A stretch of 64,000 bases of DNA from a virus. Each line of letters starts with the position of its first letter. Position 1 is the first letter of the stretch. A model generated the notes under the pieces. The model ran no database searches. It saw only the letters and a list, made by a program, of their open reading frames with translations, and was not told the DNA's origin. Shown piece after piece: positions 5,106 to 25,864 of the stretch. The translations under genes were made by a program, and so were the position numbers. The stretch covers positions 32,001 to 96,000 of IMG/VR virus record IMGVR_UViG_3300044844_000506; one strand, given 5' to 3'.

Positions 5106-5658
5106 TAAAAATCTCAGCAATTAGAGAGCGTACCGTAACTTCAAATTCCTTCTCTGTCCCATTATTATAGATATGAATGGCCCCTTCTTTCCATAAATCC
5201 GCATTTTGGAATGCTGTTTCACTAGGGCTATCCCATATCTTGCGATTATAGCCTCTCTTTAGTAATTCTTTTTCCTGAACATCAATTTCAATTATGTATA
5301 CAGGTCTATCCTTGTAGTGATTCTTTACAACTCTAAGTTCATTGGGGAATCTACAATCACTAAAGATAATAACTTCATCATTCTCTGTATAGTAATTCTT
5401 GCTAATAGCCATGTCAACCCATACATCAGGGTTTAAGGATCTAGCAAGCATACCACCAAAAATAATAAACTCTCGATACTTTTCTTTATCTCTTTCTAAC
5501 TCTTCTAATGTTAGACCTAAATTAATAGCTGCCATCTTTTTAAGTTCATCAGCAAAAGCTATACGACGAATCTTAGAGTATTCTTTTCTGGCATACTTTA
5601 TAAAGGTGTCTTTACCAGACTTACTTCTTCCAATTAATAAAATTACTGGCATCTTCAT
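5080..5658 (-). CDS. Deoxynucleoside monophosphate kinase (T4 gp1 / phosphomevalonate-kinase-like P-loop)
   Basis: GRSKSGKDT P-loop, AFADELK, DVWV, SDCRFPNE. Confidence 0.85.
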   Translation of the reverse strand: MKMPVILLIGRSKSGKDTFIKYARKEYSKIRRIAFADELKKMAAINLGLTLEELERDKEKYREFIIFGGMLARSLNPDVWVDMAISKNYYTENDEVIIFSDCRFPNELRVVKNHYKDRPVYIIEIDVQEKELLKRGYNRKIWDSPSETAFQNADLWKEGAIHIYNNGTEKEFEVTVRSLIAEIFNGLQEKVN

Positions 5659-6140
5659 TTGCTTGATCTCTTTTCTAGTTCTGCTTCAATTAAGTTTTCT
5701 AAAGTCTCCATAGCATTCTTATCAACACTAGGAGATCCCTTGTCGGTTTTAGTAGGAGGGTACAATCCTAAACCTTCAGAATCATGATAGAATATCTTAA
5801 TAAGATCCTTATTAGATGCAATATTATATTCTTCTTTTACAAAAGGGAACGATAGAACCTTGGACTTAGCCTCATCAACTTTACTCTTAACTCTTGAATC
5901 TAGATTGCCTAAGGTTCCATTATCAATCAGCATACCTCTATTTTCAATATCAGCTAATACTGGGATTAAAGGTGATAAAAGATTCTTGTAATGATCTGTT
6001 AGGTCCAACTTCTGAAGCTCAGAATACATCTTATGAAATAGCATTAAAGTATAATAGCTATCCATAGCATTACCTTTAGCCATCTCAGAAAGGGGCATTG
6101 ACTCCCAATCCTGCTTCTTTCCATCTTTTACTGTTAACAT
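5655..6140 (-). CDS. polA: Family A DNA polymerase, part 2 (ExoIII helix plus thumb)
   Basis: GNAMD (ExoIII position), LIPVLADIENRGMLID, NIAS..L..IFY..LGL, KGSPSVD. Confidence 0.88.
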   Translation of the reverse strand: MLTVKDGKKQDWESMPLSEMAKGNAMDSYYTLMLFHKMYSELQKLDLTDHYKNLLSPLIPVLADIENRGMLIDNGTLGNLDSRVKSKVDEAKSKVLSFPFVKEEYNIASNKDLIKIFYHDSEGLGLYPPTKTDKGSPSVDKNAMETLENLIEAELEKRSSK

Positions 6141-7173: not shown

Positions 7174-7527
7174 ATGGCGCAGTATATAGACAATAAAAGG
7201 TTTGAGTTTTTAGTTAGTTCTTACATATATGAAAGAACTGACAAAATCGAGGCAGAGCTTATAGAAAATCTGGACAAGCTGATAGATAATATCTTCTTGT
7301 CCTTTAATTTTAAGATAGACCACGAAGATGCGAAGCAAGATTGTTATTTGTTAATCTTCCGCGTAATGCGGAACTTTAAACCAGAAAACGGTAGTGCGTT
7401 TAATTACTTCACTACCGTTATCGTAAACAATCTAAGGTTACTGTACACTAAGAATAAAATCTATGCACAGAAACTAGAAAACTACATGAATATAAAATCC
7501 AACGATAAAGATTTACTTACAAGTTGA
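7174..7527 (+). CDS. gp55: Late-transcription sigma factor (T4 gp55-like, minimal)
   Basis: YIDNK N-terminus; NFKPENGSAFNYFTTVIVN matches the gp55 NFDP..NPFAYFTQI pattern. Confidence 0.8.
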   Translation: MAQYIDNKRFEFLVSSYIYERTDKIEAELIENLDKLIDNIFLSFNFKIDHEDAKQDCYLLIFRVMRNFKPENGSAFNYFTTVIVNNLRLLYTKNKIYAQKLENYMNIKSNDKDLLTS

Positions 7528-11931: not shown

Positions 11932-14004
11932 CTAGCTACCAAGTTTGGCACTATTTGAAGTTACGTTGATTTCGAATACAATTGCTTCGGCAGCTTTTGT
12001 AGGAATTAAGATTATCTTACACCAAACTTCGCTACGATCAATTCTAGCTGGAGTGTTGGTGGTTTCATCACAAACTACCTTGAAGTCTGTGATGCCTCTA
12101 CGACGGCGAATATCATCAAGAATTGTTTCAGCCGCAGTTTTAATATTCTGCCAAGTAATTACATCGTTTGGTTCGAATGTGAATCTCTGGGTAGAAGCTA
12201 GTAAGGTCTTTCTTAGTAGAATTAAGAGTCTACGGACGTTAACTCTATCAAGAGCACTTGGGTTTCTTTGAGCAGTTCTCTGACCAAAGATTGTGATGCC
12301 CTGTTGTGGGAATTCTACTATTGGGTTTATAGCGTTACCACCTGAGTATAGAGAATCACGATCACCTTGGTTTAGAACAATCTCAACATCATTTGGTTTA
12401 GTTAGTCTACCGCGAGTAAATCCAGCAGGAGCAAACCATGTTTCTGCTACGCTATCAGTATAGCACATTTGTCTTGCGGCATAGATTGCTGGATCCATCC
12501 ACTTATCTACACCATCGAATACCGAGAATACACGGACCCAAGGGAAGTAAATAGCAGCGTAAGATGAATTGATAGCAGCAGTTCTAGTCTCTGATTGACC
12601 ATTGTGCCAATCGAGTGCTTCTTGTACAGTATCAATTGAACCATATGGAGGTGATACAATTGCAATAAAGTTCTGACTCTGTTCAGCTAGAGTTACTAAA
12701 GCATTTTGTAAGTTCTGGTTGCTAAATCCAGGAACTAAAGCTATTGAGATATTGAGTGTATCATTATCTAAAGCGTAGATACCTTCCTTTGGACTAACTG
12801 TAGGATCACCAATTAATGCAGAAGCATTAGTGTCATTGTCCGTGGAAGTTCCATTAGTACCTGCTCCTAAGTTATAAGTACCATCAATTAATTTAAGGAA
12901 TCTTGGGTTAGCAGCACCAACAGCAGATGATCCTCTCTTGCCCTGAATATTAGTTAATCCAAGGTCTGATAATCTACCAATGAAGGATGTCAACTTAGTT
13001 GGAGTAAAGTCATTGAGTGATGATACAAGGTAAGCCTTGATTACATCTGACTTAGCATTATCAGTACCAACATTAATTAGATCTTCAATGAAAGCACCAG
13101 AAGCTAAGAAGTTAGGCTTAAAGTATTCTACGGCTGCACCATCCTCATTTACTTCTAATGAGAAACTAGCGAAGCCTAGGTTAGTAATTTCAACTGAGTT
13201 ACCACTTACAGAACCATCACCTGTTGTTCCACCATTATAACCAGCACCTGGGTATAAGGACTTGACTAAGTAAGAAACACCAGAAGTTGAGTCAGAATTA
13301 AGTGTTACACCAGAAGCTGTTACGGAAGATGCTACTGATCCTGTTGGAGAACCGTTCTCGTCCAAGGCAAAAAGTGCGCTTACTCCAGTTGTTCTAGTAG
13401 AGTTAGAATATGCGGTAACAGTTATTGTTGCACCAGAACCAGCATAGGAACCGAATACATAACCTGATGCTTGGCTGGCAGTATCAAATATAGATCCGAA
13501 GTGAGATTGATCTAAGCCGTTACCTATTGCTTTTACAAGAGCAGTACCCTGATTAGAAGTTGCAGCTACTGTTCCTGAAGGAATATTAACTTGTTTAGCT
13601 GATATTAACTTAGAAACCCCATTATTGTCAGTTACCTGTATATCTAGGTATAAGTTTTGAGTTACACCGAAGGAGTTACCAGATACTATTACAGCAGGAC
13701 AAGCACCCATTGGTACTGCTGCTGATGCTTCTAGTGCTGTGCTGGTAGTTCCTCTTACAAAGTAAACGGCATTAGTTGCTTCTAGAATCTCAACTGCACC
13801 TTCAAGACCCTGACCAGGAATTGCATTTGAAGGCTTACCGAAGATATTAATTAGGTTTTGAGGTGATGTAACTAAAGTAGCCTTGTTTACTGGTCCTTTA
13901 GAAGCATAACCTACAATACCGACGATACTAGAATCAATAGCAACTCCGTAGTCGCTAACATCTTTCTCGATAACATATACACCTGGGCTACTAAGTTTTA
14001 CCAT
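11932..14004 (-). CDS. gp18: Tail sheath protein (T4 gp18-like)
   Basis: SPGVYVIEKD, GPVN, WFAPAGFTRG, GQRT, DRVNVRRL, FEPND. Confidence 0.97.
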   Translation of the reverse strand: MVKLSSPGVYVIEKDVSDYGVAIDSSIVGIVGYASKGPVNKATLVTSPQNLINIFGKPSNAIPGQGLEGAVEILEATNAVYFVRGTTSTALEASAAVPMGACPAVIVSGNSFGVTQNLYLDIQVTDNNGVSKLISAKQVNIPSGTVAATSNQGTALVKAIGNGLDQSHFGSIFDTASQASGYVFGSYAGSGATITVTAYSNSTRTTGVSALFALDENGSPTGSVASSVTASGVTLNSDSTSGVSYLVKSLYPGAGYNGGTTGDGSVSGNSVEITNLGFASFSLEVNEDGAAVEYFKPNFLASGAFIEDLINVGTDNAKSDVIKAYLVSSLNDFTPTKLTSFIGRLSDLGLTNIQGKRGSSAVGAANPRFLKLIDGTYNLGAGTNGTSTDNDTNASALIGDPTVSPKEGIYALDNDTLNISIALVPGFSNQNLQNALVTLAEQSQNFIAIVSPPYGSIDTVQEALDWHNGQSETRTAAINSSYAAIYFPWVRVFSVFDGVDKWMDPAIYAARQMCYTDSVAETWFAPAGFTRGRLTKPNDVEIVLNQGDRDSLYSGGNAINPIVEFPQQGITIFGQRTAQRNPSALDRVNVRRLLILLRKTLLASTQRFTFEPNDVITWQNIKTAAETILDDIRRRRGITDFKVVCDETTNTPARIDRSEVWCKIILIPTKAAEAIVFEINVTSNSAKLGS

Positions 14005-14204: not shown

Positions 14205-14594
14205 TTACTTTACGCCTTTACGAGCTTTTTTTCCAGCTTTTCTACCTGCTCGAAGAGCAAATCTATGTTGATGCATATCTTTATTACGAGTTTTTCTAAG
14301 TAATTCTTGTTCAGAGGTATCTATATCTGGAGAAGCTCTTAATCTTGCAACAAACTCTTCTGGAGCACCAGGAAATTCAGGATACCTAGGCGATAATGGT
14401 CTTGTACCTGAACCAGTTGTTTTCTTACCTCTACTAGAACGATGTACTGATTGTCTACCTGGCTCACTTAGAGCTAATCTGTTTTGTCTAATTAGTTTTT
14501 TTGCTCTTGTACTTAGACCTTTATCTACTTTAGCCTCTAATAGATTACCTAAATCAAGCGATTCGTAGAGTAATATTTTACCTGCTGTTATCAT
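14205..14594 (-). CDS. Basic protein with LLE| leader (putative internal head protein)
   Basis: NLLE|AK then K/R-rich body. Confidence 0.65.
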   Translation of the reverse strand: MITAGKILLYESLDLGNLLEAKVDKGLSTRAKKLIRQNRLALSEPGRQSVHRSSRGKKTTGSGTRPLSPRYPEFPGAPEEFVARLRASPDIDTSEQELLRKTRNKDMHQHRFALRAGRKAGKKARKGVK

Positions 14595-17592: not shown

Positions 17593-19128
17593 TTAGACTA
17601 AGTTACCAATTGTCTTTCTGAAAGGCTGGTAGAGGTAGTTGCTGCTGGGACCGATGATTCTAAGAATTCTATAGAACTTAGCTTCGGGAGCGATTGCTAA
17701 CATACCGTAACGAGTCATGATACCCTTACGAGGTTGGAATGTAGCAGGATCAACTACTGTGGGGAGGTTCTCAATTGGGATGTAAGGAGCGTAAACGAAT
17801 CCTGTATCCATTGGACCAGAACCCTTATAACCCATGAGGATTTCGTCTTCGGGCCAGAGTGGGTCGATGTAAAGATCGAACTTACCACCGAGCTTGCCCT
17901 TGAACTGAATCTGAGTACCCATGTTTGATGGACCTTCAACCTTGGAACCACCATTACCACCCATACCACCACCGAGTTGAGCGGCAGTTTCGAGCATTGC
18001 ACCAATGAGTGGTGAGGTAACAATCCAAGTACCAGGACCACGATGAGTGGTCTTGAAGATGTCCTGTGACATGAGATTTAATGTTGCCCACATATTCGAC
18101 CAAACATGACCGATGTGTTGTGGGCTAAAAGGTATTGCTGAAGATGTGAAGTCAATTACCCATACGTTCGTACCTGCACCTGAGGGGTTAGTTACACCAG
18201 TGATACCACCAGTGGTATTGTTGTAATCCCACATGAACTTAGCAGGATTGAAGGTATCTGCACCACCAGTGTTGCCGATTGACTGGCTATTAGCTAAGTC
18301 TAGTGCATTTCTGTACCAACCACCTAAGCCGTTAGCAATGTTGCTATCGTAAGCAATACCACGGAGGTTTTCGAGAAGCTCACGGTCGATTTCGAGACGG
18401 AGTTCGTTACCCATGAGTTCAGTGAGTTCCTGTTCAAGATCAAGGTTGTGATAAGCCTTGAGATCCTGTGAAGCCTCAATTGTCCAGAGGGTACGCATCT
18501 TACGGGTACGAGCAACAACTGGCTGCTGTTCGATTGTAAGGTTTACTTCTGGAATAGCTGAACCTGAGAGGAATTCACCTGCTGAAATGCTGAAACCATG
18601 AGTTCTATCTGTTAGAGGCCAAGCAGCAATCTTACCACCGAATGTGGTCGAGGCTGAACCTCTTGTAGCACCATAAATAGTGCTCAATTGAACGTCATCA
18701 TCACCATCGGCACTATTAGCACCTACTGGGTTAGTTGTTAAACCACCGTAGGTTAACTGGTACTTGCTATAGACACCTTCTCTTGCTACACCGTATTGAC
18801 GGCCAGAGCCAAGGTAGAATACCTGACCAACTGGACCCTGCATGGGCTGCTGAGAAACTATTGCGTTTGCAATTAGCTGAGGGTAAACTCTACGGATTAG
18901 AGGGAATGCAAACTTCTGGAAGGTTCCAATTGAACCTGTTGAAGTTGCACCTTCAAAACCTGCTACGTTAGTTTCATCAATTCTCTTTGACTTCTCAAGA
19001 AGAATTGCCTTTGCTTGGTTCTCATAAAGAGTAGCTACGACTTTGCGAGTGTAAGAGTCATCAATGCCTTTTAATGCGGCACCCCACTTACCTACAAGGT
19101 CTTCGCCATTTTCAATTAATTCGCTCAT
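17593..19128 (-). CDS. gp23: Major capsid protein (T4 gp23-like)
   Basis: LIRRVYP, QPMQGPVG, ARTRK, QDLKAYH, EIDRE, GFVYAPYIP, FQPRKGIMTRYG. Confidence 0.98.
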   Translation of the reverse strand: MSELIENGEDLVGKWGAALKGIDDSYTRKVVATLYENQAKAILLEKSKRIDETNVAGFEGATSTGSIGTFQKFAFPLIRRVYPQLIANAIVSQQPMQGPVGQVFYLGSGRQYGVAREGVYSKYQLTYGGLTTNPVGANSADGDDDVQLSTIYGATRGSASTTFGGKIAAWPLTDRTHGFSISAGEFLSGSAIPEVNLTIEQQPVVARTRKMRTLWTIEASQDLKAYHNLDLEQELTELMGNELRLEIDRELLENLRGIAYDSNIANGLGGWYRNALDLANSQSIGNTGGADTFNPAKFMWDYNNTTGGITGVTNPSGAGTNVWVIDFTSSAIPFSPQHIGHVWSNMWATLNLMSQDIFKTTHRGPGTWIVTSPLIGAMLETAAQLGGGMGGNGGSKVEGPSNMGTQIQFKGKLGGKFDLYIDPLWPEDEILMGYKGSGPMDTGFVYAPYIPIENLPTVVDPATFQPRKGIMTRYGMLAIAPEAKFYRILRIIGPSSNYLYQPFRKTIGNLV

Positions 19129-19139
19129 AATTTTTTATC

Positions 19140-19766
19140 CTATTTATTAGGCATCAATGCCATTACATTCTCGTTGAGGAATGGATTAGAACGATCTAAT
19201 CCGAATTGTTCATCCTTAATTTGTTCCTCTGCAAGAATTAAGGCTTTTTCACTGGACTTAAACGGTCTTCGTGTATCGAGAAGTTCCTCAACTTGCTCAG
19301 TTAAAGGAACTAATTGTTCTTCTAAAGTTGAGGCAGTCTTCTTGTACTTACCTGCTAACTTTCTGTACTTTTCTAATTCTGGAACTAAATTATTTAATTG
19401 TTCAATTAAAATCTGATTTTCTTCAATGAGAGAATCTATCTGCTCATTTACTTCAGCTTCAGCTTCTAACTCTTGGTCATCTAATTCAATAGAATCTTCT
19501 AATCCTAATAAAGACTTAAGTTTACGGAATTGAGCAGCATCTCTGTGGAGATCACTTTCGTCCTCTAATTCCTTCTCAGCTTGTTCTTTTAATAGGTCTA
19601 TGTTGCCTCTAATAAAAGCTACTGTTTTAGCTTCTAATAGTTTTACTCTTTGTGTTACTTCCTCATTAATAAAACCTGAAATGAGGGTAGCTATTTCGTC
19701 TAAGCTATCCTCACTTAAATTATCGGGAAGAAGATCACTTAATTTATCTAATTTATTTGCGTTCAT
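19140..19766 (-). CDS. gp22: Prohead core scaffold (T4 gp22-like)
   Basis: Acidic coiled coil immediately upstream of the capsid gene. Confidence 0.75.
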   Translation of the reverse strand: MNANKLDKLSDLLPDNLSEDSLDEIATLISGFINEEVTQRVKLLEAKTVAFIRGNIDLLKEQAEKELEDESDLHRDAAQFRKLKSLLGLEDSIELDDQELEAEAEVNEQIDSLIEENQILIEQLNNLVPELEKYRKLAGKYKKTASTLEEQLVPLTEQVEELLDTRRPFKSSEKALILAEEQIKDEQFGLDRSNPFLNENVMALMPNK

Positions 19767-19826: not shown

Positions 19827-20849
19827 TTAAGAGTCTTCAAATTCACTAAGATGACCTCTTAACTGTTGTAAACTTCGATGTAACGATTGCCTAACTGTAT
19901 CAGGATTACTATTTAAAACTTTTGCTATTTGTATTGTATCATACCCTTTTAAATAATATAATTTAACTATGTTTTGTTGTGTTGGATTTAGTCTTGAGAT
20001 AGCTTTACCCAATTTAGCTCTAACTTCTGATCCAGCTATTCCAGAAGATGGATCTTCATATTCTTTAGGTCCAGAAATAGTAGATCCAAATTCTTTTTCA
20101 GTACCTGCTATAGGAGCATTTAATGAGCCTCCCTCTTTAGATCTAGCTCTTTTTTCTTGTGTATGATATCGTAAAGCATCTCCTACTCTAGCGTTTATAA
20201 TTTTAGATAAAAATCTAGGAAAAGATTCAACATTAAAATCTAGTTTTTCTAAATTTTGAAACCCTTCTTCAAATGCTTGTTGAACTATATCTTCAGCAGA
20301 TACCTTTGATTGAAGACTACCTAACCTACTTCTAGCAAATGCAATTAACTTTTTACTATGTTTATTAAATAGTTTATTAGTTGAATCTTCATCGCCTAAG
20401 CTGTGAGCCTGAAGTAATTCATGATCTTCTTTGTCATGAGGAACATTTCTTTGTGCCGCTTTAGCAGCTTCTTTATCAGCTATTGCTTTTTTAACTACCT
20501 TTTCTGGAATGTCTTCAGATGGTGTTTCTGATTTAGGTTTTACTTTTTTAGGTGGAAGTTCTAATGGTACTTTCCAGTAGTCATCACTTTTATCTTTTTG
20601 ATCTTCTGATTTCGGCTCTTTTTGTTCTGGCTTCTTAATTACTGGGGTAGCTGTAGGTTTTTCAACTTTAGGAGTAACTTTAGGTTCTTTAGTCTTTGGA
20701 GTAGGTTTTTTAGAAACAATCTTAGGTTTTTCTTTTTTAGGTAGAGGTTCTATTGGTTCTTCAATATCTTCTCCCTCATCTTCTTCAAGAAGAAACTCTT
20801 GAATTAAATGAATTGAATTTTCGTCTAAGATATTTTTAAAACTAATCAT
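19827..20849 (-). CDS. ECF sigma-70 factor with N-terminal leader and P/K/E-rich linker
   Basis: Sigma2 (AEDIVQ..F, F..FL..I..RVGDALR) and sigma4 HTH (RL..QQNIV.L.Y..G...QIA..L....TVR..LHR) in the C-terminal ~200 aa. Confidence 0.9.
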   Translation of the reverse strand: MISFKNILDENSIHLIQEFLLEEDEGEDIEEPIEPLPKKEKPKIVSKKPTPKTKEPKVTPKVEKPTATPVIKKPEQKEPKSEDQKDKSDDYWKVPLELPPKKVKPKSETPSEDIPEKVVKKAIADKEAAKAAQRNVPHDKEDHELLQAHSLGDEDSTNKLFNKHSKKLIAFARSRLGSLQSKVSAEDIVQQAFEEGFQNLEKLDFNVESFPRFLSKIINARVGDALRYHTQEKRARSKEGGSLNAPIAGTEKEFGSTISGPKEYEDPSSGIAGSEVRAKLGKAISRLNPTQQNIVKLYYLKGYDTIQIAKVLNSNPDTVRQSLHRSLQQLRGHLSEFEDS

Positions 20850-20850
20850 A

Positions 20851-22017
20851 CTAACAATTCCACTTTCTTAAAGCCTTGTTAATTCTGCTGTTAGGATCAT
20901 TGGCTGTTTTTGATGAGGTACGACTTCTTTTCATTCCACCCATACGAGCGCAGAATGATTTACGTCTCTTAGCAGATTTGCTGCCCTTTTTTAATTTAGA
21001 TGGATCTGTAGTTACAGCAGTCTTTAATTTAGAACCAGGATTAGCTCTGCGGTATGCTTCAACTCCTTTTTGAGTTAAACCACCAGCTCTGCTTTTATGT
21101 ACACCCATTTTCATTTTGGGCATTACACCTTTACCTTCTACTAAAATGTTTTTTATGAGTTTGGTATAGGCTTCTACTAAATCTGCTTTAGATTTAACAT
21201 CCATTACACATCTTTCAAATTTTTTAGGATCTCTTCCTTTACCAAGAGAAGCATTACACACTGCCCAAGGGTTTACTTTAGATGTGCGTTTAGCTTCATT
21301 AACAGGTTTACTAGGAACACAATTAGGTACTTTTCTCTTACCCTTCATCTTCATACCTACTTGCTGATATCCTTTCCAGCAAGGATCTTTCTTTTCAAAG
21401 ATTTTAGAGATTCTATCATCCTTAACTGTATTTAATCTGGATTCAAGTAAGTTTAGTAATACCTTATTATTTAATGCAGCCTTTTTTGTTTTTTCTAGTA
21501 ACACAGACTCATTTACTTGAGATGGATGAGCACCTCTTGTTGAAGGATCCGCAACTAAATCAAATGTTACCGCACGGAAATCTTCATTAACTTCAAATTT
21601 GCCTGGAGAATCTTGACATGGCTTTAATGATCCAAGACCTCTACTGGAAACACCAATTCGTACTCCGTCCTTAATTAACTGTTGAGCTACTTTACCAGCA
21701 GGAGTATTTAATAGTTGAGATTCCCCTATTAAAACATCTCCTTGCCAGTATAGCTTAGTTACCATGTGTGATGCGTTAGTTAATTTAACTGTTGGACTAT
21801 CTGGGTGATCTAATTCACCTAAAAGTCTATTTTCAGTTACTAATGGCATTAATCTGGTAACTTCTCTTTCTAAAATTGGTTTTGGGTAGCGTCTGTTATT
21901 CTTATTGAATTCTCCAGCACGACCAAAGATACCTCTAATCTTAATAGTACCAGACTCTGTAGACTCTGATATTACTTGAACTGGATCTAATCTAAAGTAA
22001 TCAATAAGTAATTCCAT
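20851..22017 (-). CDS. gp21: Prohead protease (T4 gp21-like) with C-terminal basic peptide modules
   Basis: NKNNRRY, GELDHP, SHMV, TPAG, GVSSRGLGS, FDLVADPS. Confidence 0.95.
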   Translation of the reverse strand: MELLIDYFRLDPVQVISESTESGTIKIRGIFGRAGEFNKNNRRYPKPILEREVTRLMPLVTENRLLGELDHPDSPTVKLTNASHMVTKLYWQGDVLIGESQLLNTPAGKVAQQLIKDGVRIGVSSRGLGSLKPCQDSPGKFEVNEDFRAVTFDLVADPSTRGAHPSQVNESVLLEKTKKAALNNKVLLNLLESRLNTVKDDRISKIFEKKDPCWKGYQQVGMKMKGKRKVPNCVPSKPVNEAKRTSKVNPWAVCNASLGKGRDPKKFERCVMDVKSKADLVEAYTKLIKNILVEGKGVMPKMKMGVHKSRAGGLTQKGVEAYRRANPGSKLKTAVTTDPSKLKKGSKSAKRRKSFCARMGGMKRSRTSSKTANDPNSRINKALRKWNC

Positions 22018-22045: not shown

Positions 22046-22288
22046 TTATGCACCATAAAATGGTCTGCGTCTAATTGTAGCTCCAGTCGGACCTTTTTTT
22101 GGATTTCCTTCTATAAATTTCTGAAATGCAGAAGGCTTTGGAGATTGTGGTTTTTTAGGTTTATCTCCTTTTTTATGATGTGGTAATGATGCAAATTCTC
22201 CTTTACCAGATCTAGGATCGTCTGAAGGATAATTAGCTTCAGCTAAAAGTAAATCATAAATATAGTCAAAATAATTTATTTTATTCAT
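22046..22288 (-). CDS. Basic peptide with LLLAE| leader
   Basis: MNKINYFDYIYDLLLAE|AN..., K/P-rich. Confidence 0.65.
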   Translation of the reverse strand: MNKINYFDYIYDLLLAEANYPSDDPRSGKGEFASLPHHKKGDKPKKPQSPKPSAFQKFIEGNPKKGPTGATIRRRPFYGA

Positions 22289-22317
22289 AGGTTAACTTTC
22301 CCAAAGTAATTCTATAA

Positions 22318-23349
22318 TTATTCCTCCCAAGATTCTTCTTTATCTTTCTTGGCTCTCTCTCTTTCCATTTCTGATTGATAAGCCGCAGTAAGTTCAGCAG
22401 ATTTCCCACCTTTAGCCTTAGCAGCAGCCGCTATTTCTTTAGATCGTAAATCTTGTAAAGCACGCTTTTTACGATCTCTTTCTGCTTGTTTTATAGCAGC
22501 GACGCCAGTTTTCTTGGGTTTTACTTTAGAAGAAACTACTTTACCATGTTTGTCTATTTCAATTGGAGTCATTCCACCTGATGCACTTAGTTTATGACCT
22601 AACTGCTTTTCAGCAGACGATAGTCTCTTTCTTCTTGATTCCAATGCCTTCTTTCGTCTACTTAATCTTGTTTCAGCCTCTTTTTCCATTTTAGGAAACT
22701 CTGAGGGACTGGCTTCTCTATAAGCCTGTCTAGCTTTTTTAAGTTCTTGTGCTTTTGCAGCTAAATCACCTTTAGCTCTAGCTGTTCCAGCACCTTTTTC
22801 TCCAGGTTTTAATAACTTATCTTCTGTAGCTTCCTTATGTGCTTTTAATGCATCTCTTAATCTTTGTCTTGTTTTTTCAGATGCAGAAGAATATGCGTCT
22901 ATTCTAGCTTTTCTACCTGCTGCTACTGCCTCTCGTCTCTTACGTCTTAATGATCCCTTCTTAGCTTTAGGATCAGAAGCTAATTTTGTTTTAGCTTCTT
23001 CTGCCTTAGATTTTTTAGACTGGTATTCCTCTCGTTTTTTTCTAATTGCTCTTAATTTAGCTTGCTCTCTTGATAGTTTTCTTTCGTGACCAGATACTCT
23101 TCTAGTAGATAGTCTAAGACCTTTTTCTACTTCTGACTCATAGGTATCCTCTGTTTGTCTTGGTTTTTTATATGATTGTTCACTTTCTTTTTGAGATAGA
23201 GGTTTATCTTTTTTTAAAGCCTCTGCTGCTTTTATATTATGTTTACGTCTTTCTGATCTTACTCCAAACTGTTTTTCTTTAATTGCATCTATCTCTTTTT
23301 GACTAAGTTCTAAAAGTAAAGAAGCAATGCTATTATATGTATTGTTCAT
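22318..23349 (-). CDS. Highly basic helical protein with LLLE| leader (putative DNA-binding internal protein)
   Basis: MNNTYNSIASLLLE|; extremely K/R/A-rich. Confidence 0.7.
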   Translation of the reverse strand: MNNTYNSIASLLLELSQKEIDAIKEKQFGVRSERRKHNIKAAEALKKDKPLSQKESEQSYKKPRQTEDTYESEVEKGLRLSTRRVSGHERKLSREQAKLRAIRKKREEYQSKKSKAEEAKTKLASDPKAKKGSLRRKRREAVAAGRKARIDAYSSASEKTRQRLRDALKAHKEATEDKLLKPGEKGAGTARAKGDLAAKAQELKKARQAYREASPSEFPKMEKEAETRLSRRKKALESRRKRLSSAEKQLGHKLSASGGMTPIEIDKHGKVVSSKVKPKKTGVAAIKQAERDRKKRALQDLRSKEIAAAAKAKGGKSAELTAAYQSEMERERAKKDKEESWEE

Positions 23350-23351
23350 GT

Positions 23352-23741
23352 TTAATAACCTTTTCTAGTTATTTTTTTCTTTTTAGCTTTAACTTTAGGA
23401 GTTCCTCCCATATTAGTTCCGATACTCCCGCAAGTGGTCATTTCATCAATAAGGTTTTTAGCTTCTTGAATTAAATGCATTAACTTTTTAACGTATACTT
23501 CAGGATTAACTGTCTGATTGGATTCTCTTACGACAGGAGAAACTTTTTTAGTTGTCTTCTCACCAAATGAATGTTCTAATATAGTATTAGTATACGAATG
23601 AGGAACTGTTACCTTAGATATATCAGGAGCATTAGGTCTTATAATACCTTGGGGAGTCGAAACAAGTTTTCCTTGTTTCGACTCACTTTTAAGTATTGAT
23701 TCTGCTATATTAGCTATATCAAAATCTTTTTGCTTAGGCAT
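23352..23741 (-). CDS. Putative head-core protein
   Basis: ILE, VRE, IDE sites; basic C-terminus; head cluster. Confidence 0.65.
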   Translation of the reverse strand: MPKQKDFDIANIAESILKSESKQGKLVSTPQGIIRPNAPDISKVTVPHSYTNTILEHSFGEKTTKKVSPVVRESNQTVNPEVYVKKLMHLIQEAKNLIDEMTTCGSIGTNMGGTPKVKAKKKKITRKGY

Positions 23742-23746
23742 AAAAA

Positions 23747-24625
23747 TTATCTTCGTGTAACTGGAGAAGCTCCAGTCATTAGATTTTTAAGAGTTCCGTG
23801 TAATCCACCTAAGTTAACCTTTGCTAATGCTTTAGATCTTTGTGGATTACTATGTTGACCAAATTCACTTACACCTTTTTTAAATTTAGGAGAAATGGCT
23901 CCACCTATTTTAGCTGCAACACCAGCGAGTTTACTTCCGCCATGACGAGCAGCGCCGACTCTTCTACCAGCTTTTTCCATAGCACTAACTTCAACTAGTA
24001 AATGAGCAATTTGTACATATGTCTCGTTCATTGGTTCGCCTTCTATTTCATTGTGTGTAAATCTCATGCCAACTCTCTTATATCTTTCTTCGGTTGCTTT
24101 ACGTTTTTCTGGATCAATAAAAGTTTGTGCTTTTTGTCCTGGAGCCGTCTGCTTTTTAAAATAACCTAAAGCTGTATTTTGCTTCTTACCCTTACTTTTT
24201 GTGATTTGAGCCTGTGTTGGTTGTGAACTCAATGTACCTGCTCTACCATGCATTAATCTATTTGTTTGGCGAGCTTTTAATAGGTCAGCATATGCTTTAT
24301 TTCTGCCTTTCTCATCTTTACCTCTTACAGCTTTACCATAAGCCTTAACAGCTTCACCGTGCTTCATTTTTGCACCTTTTTGTAACTGCGCTTGTTTCCA
24401 TTGGCCTCCCTTAGATCTTAAGGCAGAACCAATCTTCTTCATTCCCCCACCAACCATACCCTTTAATGCGGTTAAAAACTCTTGTAATAATTCCTCGTCT
24501 TCTAAGAGAATAGGAATGAGTTCTTGCTGGTGATCAAGAGGAACACCTTCTTCTGTGAGAAGAGCACTTAAATTTCTTTTCTCTTCTTCTAATAGAAGAG
24601 ATTCTTTAATTATGGAATAATACAT
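23747..24625 (-). CDS. Basic protein with two leader motifs (putative internal head polyprotein)
   Basis: MYYSIIKESLLLE| and internal MNETYVQIAHLLVE|. Confidence 0.7.
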   Translation of the reverse strand: MYYSIIKESLLLEEEKRNLSALLTEEGVPLDHQQELIPILLEDEELLQEFLTALKGMVGGGMKKIGSALRSKGGQWKQAQLQKGAKMKHGEAVKAYGKAVRGKDEKGRNKAYADLLKARQTNRLMHGRAGTLSSQPTQAQITKSKGKKQNTALGYFKKQTAPGQKAQTFIDPEKRKATEERYKRVGMRFTHNEIEGEPMNETYVQIAHLLVEVSAMEKAGRRVGAARHGGSKLAGVAAKIGGAISPKFKKGVSEFGQHSNPQRSKALAKVNLGGLHGTLKNLMTGASPVTRR

Positions 24626-24631
24626 GGGGTA

Positions 24632-24985
24632 TTACTCCTCGTCTTCGTCTTCAGATTCTTCGTCGTACTCTTCTTCGTCGTACTCTTCACCATCGTCTTC
24701 TGATTCTTCTTCTGATTCTTCATCTGAATCGTCTTCTTCAGACTCTTCTAATGATTCATTTAGAGTATCTTCAACAGCAGTGAATACTTCTAACATAGCT
24801 GCGCTGTGCTCTAATAAAGCCTCTTCGCTGATTGGTTCAGCGAGATTTGATTGGCATAGAGGACAAACATGAGCTTCTGTTACGGGAGCCTGATCTGAGC
24901 ATTCAGTTAATGCGTCTTTTTCAGTGGGTAGCCAGCTTGCACCCTCAGTAATAGCCTTTACATAATTTTTAGAAACGTGTGACAT
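24632..24985 (-). CDS. Acidic prohead core-like protein with CxxC
   Basis: AITE site, HVCPLC, poly-D/E tail; AGGAG SD. Confidence 0.7.
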   Translation of the reverse strand: MSHVSKNYVKAITEGASWLPTEKDALTECSDQAPVTEAHVCPLCQSNLAEPISEEALLEHSAAMLEVFTAVEDTLNESLEESEEDDSDEESEEESEDDGEEYDEEEYDEESEDEDEE

Positions 24986-25066: not shown

Positions 25067-25864
25067 TTAAGTACAGTCAAATGATCGTATAGTACCACCT
25101 TGGTTGCCAAAATAAATAGGTCTTGATGCTGTACTTAAATAAAATGTTACTATTGTAGGACGTTCAAAGTATTCAGAAACGTAATTATTAACTGTAATAA
25201 CATGAACACTACTTAAATAAAAGTTAGTTACATCCCCAGTTAAAGTTATAACTCCAGTATTTAAATCTATTTTATATGGATAGGGGAAAGGGGGATCAAC
25301 ACTCATTATTTTAGGTATAGTTTCATCTTTAATGTCTTTTCCAGTATCTTCCTCTTTAATTGGAGTATAGTATTCTGGAACTACTGCTAATCTTCCAACA
25401 GAAGATAGCCATGATTCGACATAAATTTTATTACAAGTTTGATATGTAATTAAATCAAGACTGTTAAGTTTATAATCTAAAACAGGAAGTCCAACGGTAT
25501 AACCGATAGTGTTTTCAGGATCTTGTATATCTGTATATGCGTTAGCAGATTGACTCTGAGATACGGATACACCTTCATCTATCAATACATCTGTAGATCC
25601 ATTATCACCTACATCTCCACATGAGATTTTATCTCCGTCTCTATGAATCCCTTTTCCATTAGCAAAAACTGTAGTAGATCCACCTAACACTGGACCCATT
25701 TGATGACAAGCTGGACCACAACAATGAGTTTGACCATAATTATCATCTATTCTAACAACAGGCTTATCATTAACAAAAACGTCTGGGGAACCATTTACTG
25801 AGAATGTTGGAGAGTAGCAGTGTCCCTGAGACACATCAGTTAAAGCTCTTATTGGTCTTGGCAT
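25067..25864 (-). CDS. PAAR spike-tip protein (T4 gp5.4-like) with C-terminal extension
   Basis: GH, GSPDVFVNDKPVVR, GSTTVFANGKGIHRDGD..CGD..GSTDV. Confidence 0.88.
   Translation of the reverse strand: MPRPIRALTDVSQGHCYSPTFSVNGSPDVFVNDKPVVRIDDNYGQTHCCGPACHQMGPVLGGSTTVFANGKGIHRDGDKISCGDVGDNGSTDVLIDEGVSVSQSQSANAYTDIQDPENTIGYTVGLPVLDYKLNSLDLITYQTCNKIYVESWLSSVGRLAVVPEYYTPIKEEDTGKDIKDETIPKIMSVDPPFPYPYKIDLNTGVITLTGDVTNFYLSSVHVITVNNYVSEYFERPTIVTFYLSTASRPIYFGNQGGTIRSFDCT

Follow-up and report, generated by a model that had tools for sequence, protein, structure and literature searches.

The gene at positions 19827–20849 of the window encodes an ECF-type sigma factor of the sigma-70 family, assigned by its domains and its fold, which lies among the head genes of a very distant T4-like phage and carries a leader resembling a capsid-targeting peptide. 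The anatomy and gene context of this protein lend partial support to a role as capsid-targeted cargo, and the proposal that the sigma factor is packaged, processed and ejected, and that transcription in the host is started with it, is given an even chance of being correct. The window, the whole stretch of 64,000 nucleotides that was analysed, comprises bases 32001–96000 of a virus record that is complete, 111.6 kb long and bounded by terminal repeats. The phage is known solely from an uncultured metagenomic contig, and its gp23-type capsid protein shares no more than about 35% identity with those of deposited phages. The first and the last ~250 nt of the record each consist of an array of 12-nt tandem repeats, which may be what gave rise to the "direct terminal repeat" call.

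Among the proteins that phages are known to inject are whole RNA polymerases, in N4 and phiKZ-like phages, and, in T4, the host-polymerase-modifying enzyme Alt. The virion RNA polymerases of N4 and of phiKZ/AR9 are late products that are packaged and, once injected, start early transcription in the next cell. Such phages supply a whole polymerase independent of the host enzyme, whereas here only a specificity subunit would be carried, which is proposed to reprogram the host core. A full-text search of the literature turned up no sigma factor described as capsid-targeted or delivered in the virion, and the candidate ECF sigma payload plausibly extends the range of T4-type capsid cargo. If true, the proposal would describe a compact strategy for the immediate takeover of host transcription and would make regulatory proteins a natural cargo of the T4-type capsid-targeting system. 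It could also explain the use of non-sigma70 early promoters by the phage and would offer a leader-tether-cargo design of natural origin for delivering proteins with phage capsids.

Domains and fold of the sigma factor

The original prediction placed a complete ECF sigma factor, with sigma2 and sigma4, at 19827–20849, behind a cleavable leader and a disordered linker. The ORF was recovered on the minus strand with exactly these limits and a length of 340 aa, its N-terminus matches the letters quoted, and the two sigma domains were found by Pfam, NCBIfam, PHROG, AlphaFold and Foldseek. The parts of the protein are as follows.

19827..20849, minus strand: whole ORF, precursor of leader, linker and ECF sigma factor, 340 aa (ORF list; Pfam, PHROG and NCBIfam; structure; fold search)
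20784..20849, minus strand: leader, aa 1–22, putative targeting peptide with a predicted cut after E22 (sequence, AlphaFold helix, hydrophobic-x-E rule)
20445..20783, minus strand: linker, aa 23–135 (no secondary structure at 23–115, no database match)
20124..20441, minus strand: sigma2 domain, aa 137–242 (PF04542; pLDDT >90; ECF columns D187 and Q190 kept)
19833..20051, minus strand: sigma4 domain, aa 267–339 (PF08281, PF04545; pLDDT >90)

Pfam located Sigma70_r2 at aa 160–229 (1.4e-8) and Sigma70_r4_2 at aa 279–330 (3.5e-10), and the ORF exceeds every Pfam cut-off for Sigma70_r2, Sigma70_r4_2, Sigma70_r4 and Sigma70_ECF, with 34.8 bits against a cut-off of 24 for PF04542 (sigma2) and 39.8 bits against 25.7 for PF08281 (sigma4). 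The NCBIfam ECF superfamily model TIGR02937 gave 83.7 bits (cut-off 42.9) while none of the curated NCBIfam sigma subfamilies was reached, and PHROG 1740, a sigma factor family, matched as well. The AlphaFold model, built from 71 sequences, consists of a helix at 10–22, an unstructured stretch at 23–115, a second helix at 116–134, sigma2 at 137–242 and sigma4 at 267–339. Both sigma domains are helical, have pLDDT values above 90 and are separated by a 24-aa loop, with sigma3 and region 1.1 absent. The top ten Foldseek matches in the PDB (SigW, AlgU, sigmaE, SigL, SigH and similar) are all ECF sigmas with a probability of 1.00, and the near-invariant ECF region 2 columns D187 and Q190 are preserved. 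In an exhaustive HMMER search of 1.8 billion representatives, residues 136–337 matched bacterial ECF sigmas of ~200 aa at ~30% identity, and aa 1–135 matched nothing.

The protein thus resembles bacterial ECF (group 4) sigmas in having only sigma2 and sigma4, in the ECF-conserved columns and in the ECF fold, but differs from them in its 135-aa N-terminal extension without matches, in falling into no curated subfamily, in its location within a virus head operon and in that no anti-sigma gene was found beside it. Membership of ECF41 was rejected because the protein stops one residue past sigma4, leaving out the ~100-aa C-terminal extension that defines this group (PMC3426412). A T4 gp55-type late sigma was also ruled out, as a full sigma4 is present and T4 gp55 does not match the ORF; the best matches to T4 gp55 in the genome fall outside it. 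Bacillus pro-sigmaE and pro-sigmaK carry an N-terminal pro-sequence of about 20–27 residues whose removal by a dedicated protease releases the active factor, and the window sigma would likewise be a precursor with a short pro-sequence. The Bacillus proteases SpoIIGA and SpoIVFB and the sigma group concerned are unrelated, and here the cut would be made by the prohead protease and would serve packaging.

The head operon and the leader

Pfam and PHROG matches on both flanks bear out the predicted location of the sigma gene between the prohead protease and scaffold genes, two genes that are adjacent in T4. The surrounding head genes and the leader-bearing ORFs are listed below.

20851..22017, minus strand: prohead protease (Peptidase_S77, gp21-like) with a C-terminal Cys-rich segment and DUF6321 (Pfam, PHROG; PF03420 at 9.6e-25)
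19140..19766, minus strand: scaffold, a gp22-like coiled coil (tblastn, 71 of 80 relatives; sits between the protease and capsid genes)
17593..19128, minus strand: major capsid protein of the gp23 family, its propeptide site aligned to T4 E65 (PF07068 at 5e-72; alignment with T4 gp23)
22046..23349, minus strand: two lysine-rich leader-bearing ORFs of 80 and 343 aa with T4-CTS-like N-termini (leader profile; no Pfam family)
23352..24985, minus strand: three further head-core ORFs of 129, 292 and 117 aa (ORF list, conservation, T4 gp67 comparison)
14205..14594, minus strand: 129-aa basic ORF with a 24-aa leader, near the neck genes (leader profile, E = 6e-18)

The sigma ATG lies one base past the stop codon of the protease gene, and the two genes are predicted from this arrangement to be translationally coupled. 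No terminator was found on the coding strand from about 25,100 to 17,593, nor any sigma70-like promoter immediately upstream of sigma within the head operon. Operon position, coupling and the absence of a terminator argue for expression of sigma together with the head genes. The window contains 11 late-promoter boxes of the form TATAAATA, where 13.5 are expected, and hence no excess of them. Translation from an internal start that would omit the leader had been named as a finding that would speak against packaging, and the sigma ORF has no internal ATG or methionine.

Upstream of the protease gene stand five lysine-rich or acidic ORFs that belong to no Pfam family, several of them with leaders like the T4 capsid-targeting sequence (CTS). 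The first two (22046–22288 and 22318–23349) are the top two matches of a leader profile built from relatives only (E = 7e-4 and 0.076) and are probable internal or cargo proteins. Among the other three, the 117-aa ORF has an acidic tail like that of the T4 gp67 sequence, and both it and the 129-aa ORF are conserved in about 20 relatives. The 292-aa ORF (23747–24625, minus strand) possesses an N-terminal leader and a second, Met-initiated leader-like motif inside, and looks as if two cargo genes had been fused. Directly upstream of this head-core block lies a gene for a PAAR-motif protein (25067–25864, minus strand; PF05488, PHROG 281). In the protease itself, each of the two C-terminal modules, the Cys-rich segment and DUF6321, is preceded by a cleavage-like motif, and both modules occur as separate leader-bearing ORFs in two relatives (L081 and L082). 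DUF6321 is very common in viral contigs (>550 matches), and a homolog search with the whole protease was swamped by this promiscuous domain.

In T4, IPI, IPII, IPIII and Alt are CTS cargo, cut by gp21 and ejected with the DNA. This phage has in common with that system a gp21-family (S77) protease, a scaffold core and a gp23-type capsid protein, and the window sigma shares with the T4 cargo a short N-terminal leader ending in hydrophobic-x-E and a variable, fast-evolving gene; in addition, T4 Alt acts on host RNA polymerase at entry, as a sigma would. It departs from T4 cargo in that the putative payload is a sigma factor and that the leader has 22 aa instead of 10 and is followed by a tether of ~113 aa. 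The T4 leader MKTYQEFIAE named in the original prediction was verified for ipII and ipIII in the T4 record, and the gp21 cleavage rule that had been invoked for T4 leaders agrees with the account of CTS function and cleavage in PMC9026906. T4 CTS leaders are 10–19 aa long according to the same source, a range exceeded by the 22-aa leader of the window sigma. The site at which T4 gp23 is cut, after residue 65, falls in the alignment on a conserved [IVL]-[DN]-E column of the clade's capsid proteins, indicating that the hydrophobic-x-E rule carries over to this group.

The leader helix (10–22) runs to F-L-L-E, with L-L-E at aa 20–22. The linker then proceeds from an acidic run through a P/K/E-rich disordered stretch (23–115) to the helix at 116–134, and has pLDDT values of 49–61. 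The linker of about 115 disordered P/K/E residues in the original prediction corresponds to about 113 residues, mostly disordered in the model. A further motif, I-P-E at aa 114–116, stands just ahead of the helix preceding sigma2, where a cut would fall after E116.

A leader motif, defined on the window as a Glu preceded by two or three hydrophobic residues and located in the first 30 aa, was tested on relatives. Of the 176 ORFs lying upstream of their scaffold gene 34 had it, compared with 21 of the 368 on the downstream side of the capsid gene (Fisher p = 2e-6), and the leaders retrieved were stereotyped and T4 CTS-like. Within the phage's own genome the motif occurs in 7 of 143 genes, four of the seven lying in the 5 kb head-core block; by chance, the four-residue motif is expected in about 5% of ORFs. 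The 24-aa leader of the ORF at 14205–14594 is homologous to that of the protein in the protease–scaffold slot of a relative (L082:6333-7337; E = 6e-18), showing that the same leader is used at different loci. The sigma leader had appeared by eye to resemble these two leaders, a likeness that the profile test did not support. With two profiles built from non-sigma leaders, one of them the class-1 leader profile, the sigma N-termini came at ranks 7, 8 and 10 of 145 with E >1, which is not significant. These tests leave the sigma leader with the cleavage-type end and the helical character of leaders, its homology to them being not demonstrable. Of the predicted capsid-targeting-like leader, the ending in a T4-type protease motif and the fitting context thus stand, and a relationship to other leaders (profiles, E >1) does not.

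The lack of a significant match to other leaders and the frequency of so short a motif by chance are both in keeping with an ordinary late regulatory sigma that is never packaged and works in the cytoplasm of the cell that made it, for example on very-late or host genes, its extension being a spacer or regulatory segment and its leader-like end a coincidence. Some phages do encode ECF-type sigmas that act within one infection, phiEco32 gp36 and its SU10 homolog among them; a virion preparation of SU10 contained one ECF sigma peptide among non-structural proteins, and its authors treat the sigma as a middle-gene product. An unpackaged sigma is nonetheless considered rather unlikely, as it would leave unexplained the translational coupling to the protease gene, the near-absence of cleavage motifs in the folded domains, and the features of the relatives and promoter-like elements given below.

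The folded part of a sigma that is exposed to the protease is expected to shun the cleavage motif [LIV]-x-E. One such motif is present in the sigma domain of the window protein, with its Glu four residues from the C-terminus, and none in the L081-type domains, whereas 131 bacterial ECF sigmas contain a mean of 4.2 (one at most in 8.4%, none in 0.8%). The median ratio of observed to expected motifs in the phage proteome is 1.11, and six motifs lie in the N-terminal 135 aa of the window protein. Against composition-matched shuffles the depletion is modest, with p about 0.07–0.10 per lineage, and is therefore supportive rather than decisive.

Relatives and the protease–scaffold slot

To place the arrangement among relatives, 80 IMG/VR loci found via the capsid protein were compared. 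The protease, scaffold and capsid genes are directly adjacent in about 30 relatives, and this is the order in most of those at ~55–60% capsid identity, while a subset of relatives carries inserts of variable size at the protease–scaffold junction. The closest relative, L081 (91% capsid identity), encodes directly upstream of its scaffold gene a 255-aa protein composed of a leader, an acidic linker and an ECF sigma, the leader having 23 aa and ending in L-L-I-E. The two sigmas are only 29% identical, against 91% for the capsid proteins; ejected or arms-race proteins diverge fast. In L082 and L083 (81% capsid identity) the slot is occupied by an unrelated basic protein of 334 aa with its own leader ending in L-L-E. 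A third leader and sigma protein, P0057, is 68% identical to that of L081, and between these two the leader is 78% identical, with conservative changes only, and the sigma domain 69%, which indicates that the leader is under constraint.

Whether relatives keep the leader and sigma fusion in the gp21–gp22 slot, a check proposed with the original prediction, thus has a divided answer: L081 keeps the arrangement, and a sigma profile run over the head loci of 160 relatives found it in no other, so that only rarely does a sigma fill this variable cargo slot. Comparative data support the reading of the protease–scaffold junction as a cargo slot in this group. The linkers of the two sigma lineages differ in charge, one being basic and the other acidic, and an unfinished tree of phage and bacterial ECF sigmas did not show a single origin of the window and L081-type sigmas. 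A word-index homolog search and an IMG/VR scan with the sigma returned the window's own protein only, an IMG/VR profile scan with the sigma returned only L081, and a metagenome scan gave the same contigs again and no new close relatives.

For an unpackaged sigma, these comparisons leave two facts unexplained, namely that leader and tether are kept in the sigma of a 29%-identical relative in the same slot, and that the sigma is exchanged in L082 for another leader-bearing protein. The variability of the slot, together with bacterial ECF sigmas as closest homologs at about 30% identity, would also suit a recently acquired, decaying or functionless bacterial sigma gene, a moron, in a permissive position. 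Such an origin is very improbable: the ORF is intact and its domains are of high confidence, its composition is like that of the phage (about 34% GC), and two diverged lineages retain the arrangement with a conserved leader. Delivery in the virion is a plausible reading, strengthened by synteny, by the variability of the cargo slot, by the conservation of the leader and by motif depletion, and weakened by the absence of leader homology.

Promoter-like elements and the proposed delivery route

The genome contains three copies of a GC-rich box of ~40 nt with the form TGTCAC-N16-CGAC, compared with 0.86 bipartite matches expected.

Genome 5518-5543, 12685-12710 and 111318-111343, minus strand: ECF-like elements (bipartite motif count; all outside the window)

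All three lie on the coding strand, 56–140 nt ahead of an ORF start and with a GC-rich inverted repeat upstream of each, and they head early-looking blocks of small genes in a genome of 34% GC. Their geometry agrees with published ECF promoters such as that of ECF41, TGTCACA-n16-CGTC (PMC3426412). Resemblance and occurrence in three copies are what mark these elements as candidate targets of the sigma. The order of inverted repeat and then promoter-like box ahead of small variable genes recalls the T4-type PeSL cassettes (PMC2839356, PMC4122927), but the PeSL box is a sigma70 early promoter and the box here has the ECF geometry TGTCAC-N16-CGAC. A sigma54-type reading was set aside by eye, as the element lacks the GG and GC dinucleotides. 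The region of the elements shows no enrichment of sigma70-type sites, and no Rfam family matches the GC-rich boxes. The element was not found in IMG/VR or in the contigs of five relatives, all of which are fragments.

The second element (12685-12710) precedes the better of two gp55-like candidates, a pistol ribozyme and three tRNAs. The candidate (genome 12042-12548, minus strand, outside the window) matches T4 gp55 with a phmmer E value of 1.9e-4 in the set of 143 proteins, and its sole PDB match is T4 gp55 (E = 0.3). The other is a 117-aa ORF at 7174–7527 of the window (plus strand) with a sub-threshold, sigma2-only match (23 bits to TIGR02937, 16 bits to PF04542), possibly a sigma2-only analog of a late sigma. 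Neither was confirmed by PHROGs, Pfam, NCBIfam, tblastn against phages or the protein Atlas, and the separate gp55 late sigma of the original prediction comes down to these two weak candidates; with no family library behind either, it remains an assumption. No other ORF rose above a sigma cut-off.

In the proposed route, the sigma would be made late, as a precursor, within the head operon, and its helical leader and long flexible tether would carry it into the core of the prohead along with the scaffold and the internal proteins of the neighbouring genes. A cut by the S77 (gp21-like) prohead protease after Glu22, and perhaps a second one after Glu116, would then free the sigma inside the head. 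After ejection with the DNA, the sigma would bind the host RNA polymerase core and initiate at ECF-type promoters, the best candidates being the three TGTCAC-N16-CGAC elements. Targeting, cleavage, retention, ejection, core binding and promoter choice are all steps that we infer.

A packaged and processed head protein need not have a promoter-specific role, as it might sequester the host core polymerase after ejection for host shut-off, or bind DNA or fill the core as an internal protein within the head. As cargo it is supported by the same evidence as in the proposed route, the roles of T4 internal proteins are varied and in part structural (PMC9026906), and the assignment of promoters is weak. 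Both DNA-recognition domains and the ECF-conserved columns are kept, though, and the genome has a three-copy bipartite element with ECF geometry, so that cargo of this kind is considered improbable. The elements also bear on an unpackaged late sigma, as the sole repeated ECF-like elements precede small early-looking genes and tRNAs and not late genes.

Promoter recognition by the delivered sigma could take the form of a self-priming relay, in which the injected ECF sigma alone would activate the three early promoters, one of them driving the gp55-like late-sigma candidate, the pistol ribozyme and the tRNA cluster, and the late programme would remake and repack the sigma. With all of its parts taken jointly the relay is unlikely; it accounts for slightly over half of the even chance given above to packaging, processing and ejection, the remainder of which falls to packaging with other targets. 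If true, it would provide the first known virion-delivered sigma factor and a start of phage transcription that is independent of host sigmas without a polymerase being carried.

Several further genes of the record were noted. A T7-like RNA polymerase was not found, in a search whose control was also silent. For a 161-aa ORF in the window (5655–6140, minus strand), the match to DNA polymerase profiles (PHROG 17) is confined to an internal portion of them. The pistol ribozyme (Rfam RF02679; 56.1 bits against a gathering score of 34.5) occupies genome 11951-12036 on the minus strand (L163:11951-12036), ~20 kb before the window, a few bases past the stop of the gp55-like ORF and upstream of the three tRNA genes. 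Near the other end of the record, a 423-aa ORF of no Pfam family (genome 109261-110532, plus strand; L165:13261-14532) has a leader-type N-terminus ending in L-L-I-E.
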